64,000 nucleotides of DNA from a phage, in the NCBI GenBank assembly GCA_036930585.1, contig GCA_036930585.1_3066.1; one strand, given 5' to 3'. The notes under the pieces were generated by a model. The model did no database searches. It saw only the letters and a program-made list of their open reading frames with translations, and was not told the origin of the DNA. A program made the translations under genes and the position numbers. How positions within the stretch are numbered: position 1 is the first letter of the stretch; each line of letters opens with the position of its first letter. This document shows, one piece after another, positions 15,428 to 62,002 of this stretch.

Positions 15428-16240
<813 letters not shown>

Positions 16241-41214: not shown

Positions 41215-41652
41215 TTAATCATGTGTCCACACCCCATCGGTATTTGACCAAAGCCGCTGATTATCTGATCCTCGCCACAGCTTTTTGGTCGGAAGATTTT
41301 TCTCATACTTCCCATCAATAATAACATCAACATATTTAAGCATTTCTAGCTGTTTAATATCTTCAAACTTATATCCTGTCCACAACCAAATGTCTTTCTC
41401 AGGAAATCTTGCTTTAACCCAAGAAACTAAATTTGAAATCTCTTCTCGGTTCTGTGGATAAAGCGGGTCACCACCGGTTAAGGTAAGGCCTTGGATATAT
41501 GATTTGCTTAAATGGGACGCAAGTTCTTTAACGGTATTCATAGTGAATAACTGTCCGTTACGAGCATTCCAAGTACTACGATTATAACAACCTTCGCATT
41601 TATGCAAACAACCTGTAACGAAAAGAACGGTCCTGCATCCAGGGCCATTCAC
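41215..41652 (-). CDS. nrdG: anaerobic ribonucleotide reductase activase NrdG (radical SAM), lacking a canonical ATG start
   Basis: VNGPGCRTVLFVTGCLHKCEGCYN (CxxxCxxC); only GTG at 41652 available; in-frame TAG TAG 7-8 codons upstream. Confidence 0.7.
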   Translation of the reverse strand: MNGPGCRTVLFVTGCLHKCEGCYNRSTWNARNGQLFTMNTVKELASHLSKSYIQGLTLTGGDPLYPQNREEISNLVSWVKARFPEKDIWLWTGYKFEDIKQLEMLKYVDVIIDGKYEKNLPTKKLWRGSDNQRLWSNTDGVWTHD

Positions 41653-41716
41653 AAAGCAGCACGGGATTGTCTACTAGAGAGGTTCCCCGTTTAGACCGGT
41701 TTTACATGAGCCTGAA

Positions 41717-42263
41717 TTAAATTAACTCATACGCCTGGAATGCATCGTATACATCTTTTTCTGTTTTAGATTGGGCATAATTCAATGCATCAGCGATTTG
41801 CCATTTTTCTGCGTCCTCAATATGTTTTGCGTAGGTACGTTTAACATAAGGAGAAAGTACTTTATCTACATTCGCAAAAGTCGTTCCGCCGTATTGGTGA
41901 GAAGCAACCTGTGCAGTAATTTGTGCCATAATTGCAGTAGCAACACCGATTGATTTAGGAGTTTCAATCTGTGCATTACCAAGCTTAAATCCGTTTTCAA
42001 GCATTCCTTTTAAATCTACTAAACAACAATTAGTAAATGGCAATGATATACTGTAATCTAAATCATGGAAATGAATAATTCCGCTTTCATGCGCTTTCAT
42101 AATAAAAGACGGGACCATATTTTTGGCAATGTGTTTAGACACAATACCAGGCCATAAGGTCCCGTTGAGTTGGAAAAACACGAGAATCTTTATTAGCATT
42201 CTCGTTTAAAAGGTCTTTATTAGTTTTATGAATCAATCCTTCAATTTCTTTTTCAATTGTCAT
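41717..42263 (-). pseudogene. nrdD: nrdD (anaerobic ribonucleoside-triphosphate reductase) remnant: only about the first 180 codons, with a +1 frameshift near codon 37 and no C-terminal catalytic/glycyl-radical region
   Basis: frame 1 MTIEKEIEGLIHKTNKDLLNENANKDSRVFPTQRDLMA then stop; second frame continues GIVSKHIAKNMVPSF...IHFHDLDYS...VYDAFQAYELI-stop; homology to NrdD N-terminal region ends abruptly about 65 nt before nrdG. Confidence 0.8.
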
Positions 42264-42774: not shown

Positions 42775-43260
42775 TCAAGTATTGTAAAACATTTGATTCA
42801 ATCGCTTATATTGCCGAATCTTTTGGTCAGAAAAAGAAATTTGGGTTTCAAGCCATTCAATGTACTCTGCGGCAGCTTGCATCAGGTTACCTTCATAGCC
42901 ATCGTTATTTTCTTGCGCAGCTAATTTAGCTAATGCGTATGAAATACGTTCACCTTGAAAAGCGGCTTTAGGCTTCTGAACATCTTGGCTAGTTCTCTCT
43001 ACAACTTCTTCAATTTCGCCATTTTCTACTGATTCAGTATTCCACAAACACCAGTATGTAATTGGCTTATCATAGATGTTAATAATCTTTCCGTCAGAAA
43101 GTTCAATTTCAATAATTCCAGTGTCAGGCTCTATATCATCTTCACATTCTTTTACAAGTTCACGAACTTTAAAGACAGTACCTGCACTAAGTTCCGGCCA
43201 GTAATTACACAGCCCTGTATCAGCACGATTAATTCTAAACCACTTATCTACTGTAATCAT
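42775..43260 (-). CDS. pin: Pin (inhibitor of host Lon protease), 161 aa
   Basis: ATG at 43260 gives 161 aa as in T4; position next to gene 49. Confidence 0.7.
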   Translation of the reverse strand: MITVDKWFRINRADTGLCNYWPELSAGTVFKVRELVKECEDDIEPDTGIIEIELSDGKIINIYDKPITYWCLWNTESVENGEIEEVVERTSQDVQKPKAAFQGERISYALAKLAAQENNDGYEGNLMQAAAEYIEWLETQISFSDQKIRQYKRLNQMFYNT

Positions 43261-43382
43261 GTCCCATCTCCATATCAATTAAGTCATTTATCGTTGGTTC
43301 ATTATATACTGTTTCTTCATCAGTGTAAACCGGTTCTTCCGGCTCTGGCTCTACAGTTTCCCATCTAGCCGCCCACCAAGGT

Positions 43383-43553
43383 TTAACCCCGAAGCTTATT
43401 AAGTTCTTCATCATCAATCCAGGATTCTAGTCCTGATGGCAGGTCACATTCAATTTCCCAAAGAAGTTCTTCAATTTTTTGAAGACGATCTAGTTCTTCA
43501 GCAGGAATAGTAACCATTGACGGAGCTCTTGCTACATTAATATCGTAAATCAT
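43383..43553 (-). CDS. small hypothetical protein, about 56 aa
   Basis: ATG at 43553. Confidence 0.35.
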   Translation of the reverse strand: MIYDINVARAPSMVTIPAEELDRLQKIEELLWEIECDLPSGLESWIDDEELNKLRG

Positions 43554-43555
43554 AT

Positions 43556-43771
43556 TTACCCCAGTTTGACCATACAATCGCCGTATTTCCACTTAGAAAT
43601 AGACTTTTCACCATTAGAATAATAAACTTCAAGTTTAGCACGATTATTTTTAATTTGAATAACCTTTGCTGTCATCAAAGTTCCATACCCATAATAAACT
43701 GCAACTTCATCACCTACATATACCGCACTTCCGCGGTAATCGTGAATATAGTCAGTTCCTTCGAGCATCAT
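43556..43771 (-). CDS. hypothetical protein, 71 aa
   Basis: ATG ORF overlapping nrdC stop. Confidence 0.5.
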   Translation of the reverse strand: MMLEGTDYIHDYRGSAVYVGDEVAVYYGYGTLMTAKVIQIKNNRAKLEVYYSNGEKSISKWKYGDCMVKLG

Positions 43772-44031
43772 TTAAAGTATTCCCGCAATTGGTCAAATCC
43801 ACCAATATGACTTCCATCTGGAGCGAATACCTGCGGCATTGTCAATCCAATTTGAGTATCACGACCTAGTTTAGTCAGAAGCTCAGCGATTTTCTCATCA
43901 TCAAAAACACCTTTTTCCGGCATAATGTTGATAAATTCAAACGGCTGTTTCTTCACGGTCAAAAGACGTTTTGCATTATCGCAATACACACATTTATGGA
44001 TGTTGCTATCATAACCATATACTTTAAACAT
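43768..44031 (-). CDS. nrdC: thioredoxin/glutaredoxin NrdC, 87 aa
   Basis: MFKVYGYDSNIHKCVYCDNAKRLLTVKKQPFEFINIMPEKGVFDDEKIAELLTKLGRDTQIGLTMPQVFAPDGSHIGGFDQLREYFK. Confidence 0.9.
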   Translation of the reverse strand: MFKVYGYDSNIHKCVYCDNAKRLLTVKKQPFEFINIMPEKGVFDDEKIAELLTKLGRDTQIGLTMPQVFAPDGSHIGGFDQLREYFK

Positions 44032-44032
44032 A

Positions 44033-44275
44033 TTATTCCTTAATTCCTAGTACTTGTTTAAAAGTCTCGTCGTAATCAAGACTTTGGCCCGTTTGTTCTT
44101 TATGTTTGTATATAATATCACTTACTTCTGATAGCATATTTTTATATGAACGAGTTAAAGCAGATTTAAGCACGCTGTATCTATCAGGAAATTTACCATG
44201 TTCATTATAATAAGCTATTGCTAATTCACGGACTGCCTTTTCAGCAGCCTCCATATATTCTTTACGCTTGGTCAT
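44033..44275 (-). CDS. hypothetical protein, 80 aa
   Basis: ATG ORF. Confidence 0.5.
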
Positions 44276-44277
44276 TT

Positions 44278-44667
44278 TTAATCCAAAATATTATTAGGCA
44301 TTGGTTGAACACTCACAAGTTCTTTAAAGAACTCAGTAGAGTCAGGCAATTTAACCATTTCCGGAGCATGCTTACTGAATTTATGTTTACATTGACGGCA
44401 TTTATATTCAAGCTCTGGTTTACGCCAGTTAATCAATTGAACTTGTTCAGTTCCACATTCAGGGCAATTAGGAACGTTTTTAGAAGCTCTTTCACGTCGT
44501 TCAACCATAGCCATAATAGCATCCCATGCTGGAGGTTTAAAATCTAAATCGTCGCAGCCGTGAATCTTTCCACGCATTTCCATATCATCTTCCTCACCAG
44601 CCATAATAATTTTAATTAAACTGGAATTACTTGAAGCTGCAATGTCTTCTAATAGACGCTTTTTCAT
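44278..44667 (-). CDS. hypothetical zinc-binding protein, 129 aa
   Basis: CPECG...CRQCKH cysteine pairs. Confidence 0.5.
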
Positions 44668-45590
44668 TTCAATACCTCAATAGCATTACGTAAACCATTT
44701 GCTTTGGCGGTTAAAGCCTTAAGAACTTTAGTATGCTCTTCAATTTGTTTTTCAACTTCAGTCAAACGGACATTGAGATATTCACGTTCTTCTTTCATAG
44801 TATCATTTCCATGATTGGGTTTTGGTATAGGTTTAAATTCACTAGGGTCCTTTAATTTAATAACAAATTTAGTTTCAAACAGTGAAAGACCATAATTCGT
44901 ATTATCATCAAAGGATTTGACTACATCCATATCAGATAATAACACGCGCAAATTATAAGCCAAAGAACTAATAGTTTCATTGTGTTTATTAGCTTCGCGT
45001 GGTTTCATATACGGAAGATTTTTATATATCTCATGCGGAGCGCAAACGATAATTGACAATTCAAATTGTCCATTCTGGGACGATGGAATGAATTTAGCCG
45101 TAACCCAGTCTTTTACATTCACATTAATAGTACGGTTATCACCATGACAAAACAGTCTACGAGAATGCTTAAAAAGCATATTCACGTTATTATTGAATTC
45201 GTGTGAAAATTCACTAGCAAATTTTTCTTTACTATCTTTAGAAAACCATTCTTCTAAATAAGTTCTTTTCACGTCGTTAATAATATTAAATGTAACAACA
45301 CTAGCATTTGATACATTAGTCTTAATGTAGCTTGGATACATAAATTTTTTAACATTATTAACAGCTATCACAGAAGATAGTAATCGGGAACGTTTGAACC
45401 ACTCGAGCAAAGAACCAAGAGAATGTGAATACGCATTTTGTGTATCTTTACAAATATGGTTTTCCCATCCAATATAGTCTAAAAAATCACGAAGAATATT
45501 ATTGATTACTGCTCTGTGTCCGATCTGATAATTACGGTGTTTAGTAATAAGACTGTCAAAATAATCAATATAATGTTTACGAGTTTTCAT
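44664..45590 (-). CDS. hypothetical protein, 308 aa, member of tandem paralog family with C-terminal coiled coil
   Basis: MKTRKHYIDYF... N-terminus and C-terminal coiled coil shared with the next three genes. Confidence 0.6.
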   Translation of the reverse strand: MKTRKHYIDYFDSLITKHRNYQIGHRAVINNILRDFLDYIGWENHICKDTQNAYSHSLGSLLEWFKRSRLLSSVIAVNNVKKFMYPSYIKTNVSNASVVTFNIINDVKRTYLEEWFSKDSKEKFASEFSHEFNNNVNMLFKHSRRLFCHGDNRTINVNVKDWVTAKFIPSSQNGQFELSIIVCAPHEIYKNLPYMKPREANKHNETISSLAYNLRVLLSDMDVVKSFDDNTNYGLSLFETKFVIKLKDPSEFKPIPKPNHGNDTMKEEREYLNVRLTEVEKQIEEHTKVLKALTAKANGLRNAIEVLK

Positions 45591-45642
45591 ATTCTTCTCA
45601 CTTGGTTAATGGTTTATACTCCGAGCCATCCTTGGCTTTAAA

Positions 45643-46644
45643 TTACTTAATTAACTGTAAAGCTTGTTCAAGACGATTAAGACGATTAACGGATTCTTCC
45701 CAAATCTTTTTAGCCTGCTCATATTCTTTCTGCGCTTTATTAGAAATTTCTAGAACTTCTTTATAAGCTTTTTCTAGTGCAATAACTTCTGGACGAATTT
45801 CTACTGGTTCAGGCGAATCGTCAAGACATTCCATTAGTTCCTCAAGGGTAGTTTCTTCTTTAGGAGTATTCACAATTTCATCACATTTTTGTTGGTAAAT
45901 TTCTTTATCAGTCGGTGAGTACGCACACTTTACTTCACGGAGACTAACTACAATTTTATATCCTTCCCAACCGCATATATTCTTAAAAGGATAAGTATGA
46001 ATATTTTCTACTGTTTCCATACAAAGTAATGCGGTCTCTAATTGACGAGTTATAGTGCTAGCAATTGAGAAAAATTTATTAATGTTCTTTTGATTAGCTT
46101 CTGGTGTAAAAAATCTGTAATTAATAAAAATAGCTACTTTGTTTTTATCAAGTTCATATTCTTCTGCTATAATCATATCATCAGCTAAGGGATGAATTTG
46201 ACGATAATCGCCATAACATAATTTAGAAGCTGATTTTAGAATTTGCTTCGTAAAACTCCTAAATTCACTAACCCAACGACGAGTAAAAATATTCTCAGGG
46301 TCTTCTTTAGTATTAAGATGATAAGTATTAACATCACCGAACCAATTATATCCTACTACATCTTTAGTTCGTTTAATTTCTTTCCCAAATTTACTAAGAA
46401 TATCTCTGTTGACTAAGTATGAAAGAAGACGAGACTCTTTAAAGGTTTTCTTGATAAGATCTTTATCTACACGACTAGAAATTTTACGAATTTCATGAAT
46501 AAATTTGCTGGAAGAAACAATACTTGCATCAGTATTGTTGAGCCACTGATTGATAATAGAAAGAACACTATTCTGACTAGACATAGGTTTAACTTTATCA
46601 TCAATAACGCTATTGAATGATTTGATATATTCGTTACGAGTCAT
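45643..46644 (-). CDS. hypothetical protein, 333 aa, tandem paralog family member
   Basis: ATG at 46644 with GAGGAG SD (MTRNEYIKSF...); track start at 46674 lies within the promoter. Confidence 0.6.
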   Translation of the reverse strand: MTRNEYIKSFNSVIDDKVKPMSSQNSVLSIINQWLNNTDASIVSSSKFIHEIRKISSRVDKDLIKKTFKESRLLSYLVNRDILSKFGKEIKRTKDVVGYNWFGDVNTYHLNTKEDPENIFTRRWVSEFRSFTKQILKSASKLCYGDYRQIHPLADDMIIAEEYELDKNKVAIFINYRFFTPEANQKNINKFFSIASTITRQLETALLCMETVENIHTYPFKNICGWEGYKIVVSLREVKCAYSPTDKEIYQQKCDEIVNTPKEETTLEELMECLDDSPEPVEIRPEVIALEKAYKEVLEISNKAQKEYEQAKKIWEESVNRLNRLEQALQLIK

Positions 46645-60374: not shown

Positions 60375-60588
60375 ATTTGACTTCCTCACCAGTACATAAA
60401 TCGTATTCAACTAAACGAATAGGTTCATGAATGCCATATCCTTGAACAGAAATTTCTGTCGTAGGATAAATTCCACTAATATCACCCATATTCCACGCTT
60501 CATTAAATTGCTGTTCGCCTGAATTACTAAACCATTCTGCGAAAGCATTTAACACATCTTTAGAACCTTCAATAATTATCTTTGCCAT
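60367..60588 (-). CDS. hypothetical protein, 73 aa
   Basis: ATG ORF. Confidence 0.5.
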   Translation of the reverse strand: MAKIIIEGSKDVLNAFAEWFSNSGEQQFNEAWNMGDISGIYPTTEISVQGYGIHEPIRLVEYDLCTGEEVKYD

Positions 60589-60949
60589 TACAAGCTCTCA
60601 GTAAAGGTACGAGCGATAACGTCGCGCTGCTGTTCCGGAGTCAGAGAGTTAAAGCGAACTGCATAACCGGATACACGGATGGTCAGCTGCGGATATTTTT
60701 CCGGATGCTTAACTGCATCTTCCAGAGTTTCACGACGCAGAACGTTAACGTTCAGGTGTTGACCACCTTCAATTTTAACTGTAGGCTGTGGTTCAATTTC
60801 AATTTCACGGGCATGCAAACCGTAGAAAATTTCTGGGTCTACAAAAGAGTCCTCTTTAAAGGTTTAGAAACAATAATTCGTGCTTGAATACCATCTTCAA
60901 AATAAATAGTACCTTTATGTGTGCCTTCAAGAATTTGATATGCTTTCAT
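60588..60949 (-). pseudogene. grcA/yfiD-like autonomous glycyl-radical cofactor gene (T4 Y06I-type), interrupted by a 1-nt frameshift in a homopolymer run
   Basis: frame a [36 protein letters not shown]-stop; shifted frame [90 protein letters not shown] (glycyl radical motif RVSGYAV). Confidence 0.75.
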
Positions 60950-60955
60950 ATAACC

Positions 60956-61285
60956 TCAATTAGAAAATAAATTTATCCAAGATTGTTCTTTAATTAAAAA
61001 TGGCTCAGAATCATATGCCATTAAACTCTGTGTGATTAGTCCTTTAAAAGGCCCATCAATAAATTCCATGGTAAAATATGGAATTTTATTCATTAGCCGT
61101 GCATTAGGAGCAGTACATAAAACTCTGCATCCTTTGAATACACCTTTTTGTAATTTGTATTGCTTGGGATAAAATTCGCTCAAAATGTTATTATTTGCTA
61201 AAATTTCAAAATGATTCACCAATTTATTTTTAATAGTTTTTGGCGAAAAATAAAGATATTCGAAAAGCTGTGTGTCTGTCATCAT
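60956..61285 (-). CDS. hypothetical protein, 109 aa
   Basis: ATG ORF. Confidence 0.5.
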   Translation of the reverse strand: MMTDTQLFEYLYFSPKTIKNKLVNHFEILANNNILSEFYPKQYKLQKGVFKGCRVLCTAPNARLMNKIPYFTMEFIDGPFKGLITQSLMAYDSEPFLIKEQSWINLFSN

Positions 61286-61824
61286 TGCATTCCAATCACA
61301 AAAAATTGAGGACGAACTGTTTCACCTGTTTCAGCATTATAGCTTCGACAACAGTGCTGCACAGTTTCAATATGAATATCGTAAATTTTATCCATATCAG
61401 GAGATTTAACAGGCTCATCAATTATATACAAAATTCGTGAAAGCGATAAACCTCTGAACTTGCTACCTCTATTACCAATAAAACTGCGCACAGAATCAGT
61501 AAATAAACGAAAACGTATATCATCATTAGAATAACGCGAAAATTCCTTTTTAATGTTATTTGCAGAAATTTTAGCGTAAGCTGAAGTATTAGATAGAACA
61601 ATAACTGTTCCGCCATCATACAGCCAATTAGCAGCAAAGTTAGTCACAGCAAGTGATTTACCGGATTGACGTCCACCATCTATACGAAGTGTGCAGTACT
61701 GTTTAAGTACGTCTTCAAATGGTGGGACATAACCGTTCTTACAAATTTCTTCTACTCTAGCATCAGAATGGTGTGTAAAAGCATTCATCAGGGATAGATA
61801 AGGTCCAGTTAAAAATGTTCTCAT
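61282..61824 (-). CDS. P-loop NTPase, 180 aa
   Basis: Walker A GGRQSGKS, Walker B-like ILYIIDEP. Confidence 0.55.
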   Translation of the reverse strand: MRTFLTGPYLSLMNAFTHHSDARVEEICKNGYVPPFEDVLKQYCTLRIDGGRQSGKSLAVTNFAANWLYDGGTVIVLSNTSAYAKISANNIKKEFSRYSNDDIRFRLFTDSVRSFIGNRGSKFRGLSLSRILYIIDEPVKSPDMDKIYDIHIETVQHCCRSYNAETGETVRPQFFVIGMQ

Positions 61825-61982
61825 TTAGTTTCTCTTTTAGGTTGGGCCATTCCGTGGCACATGAATTGTCCATTTCTGTATTTACCCATTACCGCACTTG
61901 GGCACGACCTTATTACAGGTTGGCGGGAATCCCTCATAGAATCATGAGGTCCAGGTTGTTCCCATTTTATTTGAATGTAAAT

Positions 61983-62000
61983 AGGCCTAAGTATAGGCCT
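61983..62000 (-). terminator. stem-loop formed by two palindromic AGGCCT sites downstream of ipIII
   Basis: aggcctaagtataggcct. Confidence 0.4.
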
Positions 62001-62002
62001 TA

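Follow-up and report, generated by a model that had tools for sequence, protein, structure and literature searches.

A frameshifted allele of the chimeric glycyl radical cofactor gene vs.6 in a T4-like phage, probably a real pseudogene with an E. coli-like 3´ half

The phage T4 protein Y06I, the product of vs.6 (NP_049730), is counted as one of only two biochemically validated spare-part proteins (PMC8683613, citing Wagner et al. 2001). Both Y06I and E. coli YfiD (GrcA) obtain a radical from the pyruvate formate-lyase (PFL) activase and then complement PFL that has been cleaved by O2 at Gly734 (PMC8683613, citing Wagner et al. 2001). E. coli GrcA has a two-part architecture that is also found in the phage protein, with an N-terminal half for binding and activation followed by a structured radical domain, to which residues 68-127 essentially correspond (domain limits from PMC8683613). 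YfiD truncated to residues 61-127 retains catalysis, with activation lowered fourfold (PMC8683613). Other phages, including JS09, Jiaodavirus JD18, Slopekvirus M1, Pseudotevenvirus Taquito, and T5-like Bf23, likewise encode standalone GrcA proteins of 120-122 aa with the same domain order. In all of these phages the gene is intact, and the 3´ half is GC-richer and far more conserved than the 5´ half. The likeness of this 3´ half to host grcA is graded, with 97% identity to E. coli for JS09, 93-94% to Klebsiella-like grcA for JD18, ~84-85% to any enterobacterium for M1 and Taquito, and ~75% for Bf23.

We analyzed a 64,000-nt stretch of phage DNA (contig GCA_036930585.1_3066.1, hereafter the window), for which an initial annotation had proposed a GrcA/YfiD-like gene at positions 60588-60949. 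The proposal holds: this region carries, on the minus strand, the ortholog of T4 vs.6 (Y06I, "autonomous glycyl radical cofactor GrcA"), flanked by vs.7 and vs.5 and upstream of regB, and BW-1 and T4 are arranged alike. A 421-nt query for the locus matched 794 phage records, 778 of them over ≥80% of the query length, and DNA identity to these 778 records was 98-99.8%, the best match being at 99.8%. Many of the matched T4-like phages annotate the ortholog as "autonomous glycyl radical cofactor", and among the matches listed for this query, each was 1 base longer than the query. The placement of the locus in the vs-regB early cluster, with vs.7 and vs.5 as neighbors, and its DNA identity of >95% agree with membership in the T4 vs.6 orthologous group. 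The vs.6 gene had been described before, along with its function and its host-like C-terminus, and as a gene the locus is nothing new.

The homologues in BW-1 and T4 are each a single 363-nt ORF, whereas the window copy is split between two frames. Its start codon, ATG at 60949-60947 on the minus strand, is preceded at a distance of 4 nt by a Shine-Dalgarno sequence, GAGG (60954-60957), which overlaps the vs.7 stop codon TGA (60956-60958) and is identical in BW-1, T4, and the Logan contigs considered below. The ATG opens a 36-codon ORF (60839-60949, minus strand) comprising 29 authentic GrcA codons and 7 out-of-frame codons (PLKRTLL) before a TAG stop at 60841-60839; a Pfam search with this 36-aa stub gave no match. 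The out-of-frame remainder of 90 codons (60588-60863, minus strand) encodes GrcA residues 30-120 (TFKEDSF...TFTESL) and ends with TAA at 60590-60588, overlapping the ATG of vs.5 (60586-60588, minus strand) in the sequence TAATG, likewise in T4 and BW-1. Within the remainder, the GGT codon for the radical glycine lies at 60666-60668 (minus strand) in RVSGYAV, and alignment to 6OWR and PFL 1H16 equates this residue with Gly102 of E. coli GrcA and Gly734 of PFL. A mechanically called 76-aa ORF that starts with TTG (60588-60818, minus strand) forms part of the same remainder. We rejected it as a real gene, as it has neither a Shine-Dalgarno sequence nor an ATG or GTG start and is merely the tail of the shifted frame.

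When the missing base is restored, the product is 120 aa long, in place of the ~110 aa that had been estimated, and its exact sequence is on record from 187 contigs, with several sources naming it GrcA. The Gly_radical family PF01228 scores 66.8-68.5 bits for the vs.6 sequences (cut-off 22.2) and spans residues 61-101 of the repaired protein, with RVSGYAV matching the motif RVxG[FWY]. The repaired protein matches PDB 6OWR with E = 9e-42; its residues 22-120 align to residues 28-127 of this structure, and its residues 20-120 align to positions 25-126 of TIGR04365. Against TIGR04365, the repaired protein scores 153.3 bits and the 76-aa frame 146.1 bits, both below the 170-bit NCBIfam equivalog cut-off. 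The repaired protein falls short because the phage N-terminal half has diverged, and since T4 Y06I differs from it by one residue (R73 in the window, H in T4), Y06I should miss the cut-off too, though it is experimentally validated. Only the repaired protein is both of the size of a standalone GrcA (~120-127 aa) and, in its N-terminal half, homologous to GrcA residues 1-60, and the single unbroken frame that characterizes the GrcA/YfiD/Y06I family (IPR011140, TIGR04365) is absent from vs.6 in the window. The 76-aa frame resembles the 78-80-aa proteins GrcA2 and GrcA3 (NF008341, NF038360) in that it covers the same radical domain (profile positions 19-78), but it scores 94-108 bits against their cut-offs of 145-158 and, unlike them, is a frameshift by-product that has neither a ribosome-binding site nor a start codon of the ATG or GTG type.

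Compared with T4 vs.6, the window copy occupies the same position and has the same chimeric structure and junction, with DNA identity of 97.8% in the 5´ half and 98.4% in the 3´ half. Unlike T4 vs.6, it is short of one A at codon 30 and yields no full-length protein by normal translation. With E. coli GrcA (YfiD; 6OWR, TIGR04365) it shares an identical C-terminal 60 residues and the RVSGYAV loop. Its N-terminal half (codons 1-59), however, is AT-rich, 7 residues shorter, and a diverged homolog at ~35% protein identity, whose alignment starts at profile position 25 of TIGR04365 and covers residues 28-67 of the NMR structure 6OWR. The genomic settings also differ: phage vs.6 belongs to an early-gene cluster, whereas E. 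coli grcA is located next to ung.

In alignments with BW-1 and T4, the relatives read TCTAAAACC and the window reads TCTAAACC, such that one A of an A4 run is absent and an A3 run is left at 60863-60865 (minus strand). The loss of a single nucleotide from a short homopolymer had been predicted correctly, but at 60855-60860, 3-8 nt away from the actual site. The deletion falls at codon 30 and accounts for both the 36-codon stub and the 90-codon out-of-frame remainder. A 60-nt query centered on the deletion found it in 0 of 508 GenBank phage relatives, the best identity of 98.4% corresponding to the gap itself, and the deletion allele had no exact match among the viral contigs of IMG/VR. The exact 36-aa stub is also called as a gene in the Logan assemblies of SRR28171614 and ERR7569065. 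The contig from SRR28171614 (L005), the product of an independent k-mer assembly, also carries the deletion and matches the window at 100% identity across 3,207 nt; this sample evidently holds the same phage. The contig associated with ERR7569065 (L004, two samples) has the same deletion but is ~93% identical to the window upstream, shows SNPs of the T4 type near the deletion, including one at a distance of 4 nt, and keeps every other gene in its 3.2 kb intact. It is a different phage with the same vs.6 deletion. The allele is rare, being found in 3 SRA samples and the window. A 67-aa product in the same protein cluster (P0002; ...GLHAVKLKLKLK) represents another frameshift allele of vs.6.

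We also compared the rest of the window with T4. Full-length alignment in one frame was obtained for 91 of the 108 T4 ORFs with matches in the window, including all large replication genes. In dam, 1 T has been lost from a T6 run, leaving T5 at 15546-15550, a deletion present in 0 of 184 relatives. In nrdD, a 1-nt insertion (G to GG at 42150-42151), outside any run, was found in 0 of 679 relatives. The genes nrdD and nrdG, which encode the phage's own glycyl-radical enzyme and its activase, are additionally affected by a private deletion of ~2.9 kb, where the window, at 41657/41658, jumps from T4 coordinate 42887 to 45781; the deleted DNA takes in mobC, exon 2 of nrdD with most of the nrdD intron, and the initial codons of nrdG, and the junction is spanned by 0 of 594 relatives. 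Logan contigs of SRR28171614 reproduce the dam frameshift as well as the nrdD insertion and the nrdD/nrdG deletion. No gene on record corresponds to the 160-aa ORF remaining from nrdD, while the 42-aa nrdD stub did match. Three single-base indels per 64 kb are more than a clean natural isolate would usually show. Their common avoidance of essential genes is not significant, as essential genes make up ~22% of the region (P ~0.47, an estimate). An apparent "frameshift" in vs.8 in the tblastn comparison was rejected as a signal of error; it consists of a 7-nt indel plus substitutions, the product is 180 aa, the vs.8 product of BW-1 is also shortened (179 aa), and the change appears to be a natural variant.

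The 3´ half of vs.6 had been described as GC-rich and host-like, and this is what we observed. A tract of 185 nt at 60588-60772 (minus strand) matches E. coli grcA with 2 synonymous mismatches, at 60597 and 60593; both fall within the final ten bases, leaving 175 nt (60598-60772) without any mismatch. The tract matches grcA in all 5,426 complete E. coli genomes at 98.9% (183/185), and in a megablast against these genomes, run as three chunked searches, it was the only matching part of the 64 kb. The near-identity to E. coli GrcA, initially put at 63 codons, extends over the last 60 codons, where the protein is identical to GrcA residues 68-127 (60/60) and the DNA matches at 181/183 positions. 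GC content rises from 0.33 in the 5´ half to 0.49-0.50 in the 3´ half (window mean 0.34), and GC3 from 0.18 to 0.45 (0.245 ± 0.05 for the ORFs of the window). No other 183 nt of the window are as GC-rich, a GC content of this level being reached by 0.02% of positions, all of them here. The codons are of the E. coli type, with CTG used for 5 of 6 leucines (8% in window ORFs) and CCG for 3 of 3 prolines (14% in window ORFs).

Over the 183 nt, the phage sequence matches E. coli at 181 positions, Escherichia sp. at 179, and Citrobacter at 168, while E. coli grcA itself matches Citrobacter at 170, Salmonella at 154, and Klebsiella or Enterobacter at 155-160. The identity to E. coli grcA is thus high, well above the 154/183 that separates E. 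coli from Salmonella. The corresponding E. coli matches are 180/183 for T4 and 178/183 for the Mosigvirus JS09. On these comparisons, the donor of the tract is specifically E. coli.

The junction of the two halves lies immediately 5´ of TTGAAGGTGG, which encodes EGGQHLNV, and the tract with this same junction is common to T4, other Tequatroviruses, and Mosigviruses, amounting to hundreds of phages in two genera. The 5´ half of the window gene is 88% identical to that of JS09, 73% to that of JD18, and 59% to that of M1; the values for the 3´ half are 97%, 85%, and 83%. The Klebsiella phage JD18 has the same junction as well, followed by a 3´ half with a GC content of 0.55 and the Klebsiella-type LLDAVEH. 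This 3´ half matches Klebsiella-like chromosomal grcA genes from gut metagenomes at 170-172/183 positions and E. coli grcA at 156/183, whereas the JD18 5´ half is 46-47% identical to the same metagenome genes. The metagenome contigs are nearest to Klebsiella and Raoultella, and the donor is known only as Klebsiella-like; the matches were obtained with a degenerate pattern, an exact 33-mer of the JD18 3´ half giving no match in metagenome contigs.

Taken at the sequence level, these patterns point to an old phage homolog that host sequence has partly converted, and not to a capture specific to the window phage. The same part of the gene would have been replaced from the host at least twice independently, once by E. 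coli and once by Klebsiella-like sequence, and the shared junction would fit recombination limited by the end of phage-host homology. We found no published account of vs.6/grcA gene conversion in our literature searches. The initial annotation had instead proposed a recent capture from the host, in which the lineage would have taken up a whole host grcA whose 5´ half was since replaced or drifted to AT-richness. The virtual identity of the 3´ half to E. coli grcA and the razor-sharp junction speak for this idea, and its host-origin component stands. A recent or whole-gene event is very hard to maintain, given that T4 and hundreds of phages in two genera have an identical chimera and junction and that the 5´ half is an old homolog of the GrcA N-terminal half whose divergence is graded among phages (88%, 73%, 59%). 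Joint capture of the whole gene is excluded because the 3´ half has 175 nt free of substitutions, which is incompatible with ~50% identity in the 5´ half. Recent capture is in effect refuted by the existing comparisons.

A second choice, between a gene that is broken and one that is mis-sequenced, had been posed for the frameshift; these are the right alternatives, the frameshift being either a strain-level defect or an error, and the evidence leans toward the former. We consider it likely that vs.6 is a real pseudogene, because the genome truly carries private lesions and because the deletion recurs on a second background. A 2.9-kb deletion with a unique junction is no base-calling error, which argues that private lesions in dispensable genes of this phage are real. 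If the frameshift were instead an artefact, the phage would have an intact 120-aa vs.6 with A4, and the dam and nrdD indels would be errors too, arising from miscalling of homopolymers or modified bases. All three single-base indels are indeed private (0/508, 0/184, and 0/679 relatives), two of the three are in homopolymer runs (A4 and T6), and systematic errors are plausible on some platforms for T4-type DNA with glucosyl-hmC and 6mA. An identical "mutation" in an unrelated phage dataset is also what a motif-specific systematic error would produce, and the only assembly that confirms all of the indels is from the same run, SRR28171614. Since the Logan contigs of this run possibly derive from the same reads as the window assembly, they dispose of an assembler artefact while leaving room for a systematic base-calling error. 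We nevertheless regard an artefact as unlikely. A run of A4 is too short to be a usual error site in Illumina-type data, the nrdD insertion is not in a run at all, the 2.9-kb deletion resides in the same genome, and 91 of 108 T4 ORFs are intact. Moreover, k-mer assemblies require a variant to be present in repeated reads, and the ERR7569065 contig has no other broken gene in its 3.2 kb. We infer that the deletion is present in the phage DNA itself, beyond the reads.

A real deletion might still leave some function if the allele were leaky. Read from the sequence, the window has a T_TTA_AAG heptamer at 60854-60860 (minus strand), with the zero frame reading CCT TTA AAG (60862-60854), and this heptamer follows the X_XXY_YYZ pattern in the zero frame, with the -1 frame corresponding to the conserved GrcA frame. 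A -1 slip at U_UUA_AAG would give ...SKPLKEDSF... in place of ...SKTFKEDSF... and with it some near-normal 120-aa GrcA; another product could be the 76-aa fragment from the TTG at 60818. In E. coli, ribosomes tend to shift at A_AAG and X_XXA_AAG sites, U_UUA_AAG serves as a working shift site, and cases of low-level frameshifting that rescues "savior indels" have been described (PMC5009743). Other points in favor are the occurrence of the same deletion on two backgrounds, the natural existence of GrcA2 and GrcA3 at only 78-80 aa, and the catalysis retained by truncated YfiD(61-127) (PMC8683613). Opposing these, we found no stimulatory structure downstream of the heptamer (folding of 93 nt, MFE -18 kcal/mol, z = -0.23 relative to shuffles), no GGAGG-like Shine-Dalgarno element within the 20 nt upstream of it, and no Shine-Dalgarno sequence before the TTG at 60818. 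Slippage without such stimulation is expected to reach at most a few percent. The heptamer exists only since the wild type happens to read ACC TTT AAA G, the split-frame arrangement is conserved in 0 of 508 GenBank relatives, and the allele is rare (3 samples and the window). On balance, a leaky allele seems improbable. There is an equally slender chance, if not a slightly smaller one, that the change from A4 to A3 is an attenuating, "savior-type" indel, in which the in-frame U_UUA_AAG would permit a trickle of full-length GrcA and the recurrence would reflect selection for reduced, but not abolished, synthesis of a protein in which repeated gene conversion maintains a host-identical radical half. 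We also considered transcriptional slippage, which is supported by A/T runs of 7-9 or more, and rejected it as a means of rescue, the A3 run being far below this length.

The best overall explanation, which we hold to be probable, is that vs.6 in the window is a chimera with an E. coli tract that has been inactivated by a real frameshift. In its intact form, the protein is proposed to work as follows. [quoted passage not shown] The 5´ half (codons 1-59) would be the old, phage-adapted N-terminal half of GrcA, and the last 60 codons would have been installed from E. coli grcA by homologous recombination or gene conversion. With the A lost from A4 at codon 30, translation is predicted to end after 36 codons, upstream of the radical domain, making the window gene a presumptive real loss-of-function allele and one of several private lesions in dispensable genes. 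The co-occurrence of the grcA and nrdD/nrdG losses suggests relaxed selection on anaerobic functions in this lineage. Having apparently lost both of its glycyl-radical functions, one to the grcA frameshift and the other to the nrdD/nrdG deletion, the phage may serve as a ready-made natural mutant, useful for asking what anaerobic auxiliary genes contribute to the fitness of T4-like phages in low-oxygen hosts.

Beyond this allele, the DNA of phage grcA follows the host clade in the half that encodes the radical domain, which is E. coli-like in Tequatroviruses and Mosigviruses and Klebsiella-like in Jiaodavirus, with the same junction near the domain boundary. Phage grcA may offer a small, natural case in which host sequence has repeatedly converted a gene of lytic phages. 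The host-like tract is also a practical hazard for assembly, in that de Bruijn contigs break there. Both of the Logan contigs that carry the deletion stop ~1 k-mer inside the E. coli-like tract, which is where a branch of the assembly graph into host grcA would be expected to end them.

The Klebsiella phage JD18 carries a GrcA gene (318-680 of its matching record, L008) that is chimeric like the vs.6 copy of the window, with a Klebsiella-type 3´ half. This half has a GC content of 0.55, encodes the motif LLDAVEH, and matches the Klebsiella-like chromosomal grcA genes found in gut-metagenome contigs (L095-L149) at 170-172 of 183 positions, compared to 156/183 for E. coli grcA. These sequence matches imply that the same gene segment was replaced independently, by transfer from host to phage, in another phage genus. 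GrcA-like genes also are widely distributed outside the T4-like phages among the phage matches listed, where they are carried by T5-like Tequintavirus, Salmonella phages, the Vibrio phage VS1, an Erwinia jumbo phage and the Klebsiella phage RaK2. The gene in the T5-like phage Bf23 (L011, 220-588) adjoins tRNA genes. Among the matches listed, the 3´ halves of the genes outside T4-like phages show 70-76% identity to that of the window.

We noted that two Logan k-mer assembly contigs, L004 (from ERR7569065, a different phage background) and L005 (from SRR28171614, evidently the same phage as the window), have 3´ ends ~30 nt into the E. coli-identical tract of vs.6, at the equivalent of window position ~60743. 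These ends probably are caused by branching of the de Bruijn graph into host grcA k-mers, and vs.6, with its host-identical tract, therefore would be a point at which T4-like phage genomes break up in k-mer assemblies. A second vs.6 frameshift allele, distinct from that of the window, is present in public data as protein P0002 (beginning MKAY), encoded on a Logan contig of 1,716 nt; its sequence is consistent with the loss of one C from GCCCGT. The existence of this allele suggests that vs.6 has been repeatedly inactivated or mis-called.

The window also carries changes that were absent from all GenBank relatives matching each local query. At 41657-41658 (context 41215-42263), ~2.9 kb corresponding to T4 42888-45780 is lost. 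Most of the nrdD group I intron is gone, together with I-TevII, as are nrdD exon 2 and mobC, and nrdG lacks its first ~10 codons; a 5´ intron stub is left, fused to a 145-aa nrdG with a GTG start. None of 594 relatives spanned this junction; an identical structure was found in Logan contig L094 of SRR28171614. What remains of nrdD exon 1 is broken into two ORFs of 42 and 160 aa by a +1 insertion (G to GG, 42150-42151), seen in 0/679 relatives and again in the SRR28171614 assembly. Close to the 3´ end of dam (15428-16231, minus strand), shortening of a T6 run to T5 (15546-15550) gives the Dam methyltransferase a different C-terminal sequence over its last ~30 residues, in an ORF lengthened to 267 aa; this deletion, found in none of 184 relatives, likewise is in a contig from that run (L093).

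A stretch without ORFs (61818-62002) lies upstream of the vs.8 homolog (61282-61824, 180 aa). Relative to T4 vs.8 (219 aa), the homolog has a 7-nt indel and several substitutions, due to which the N-terminal 40 codons of T4 vs.8 are in another frame in the window. Since phage BW-1 has a 179-aa version, this difference appears to reflect natural variation and not an error.
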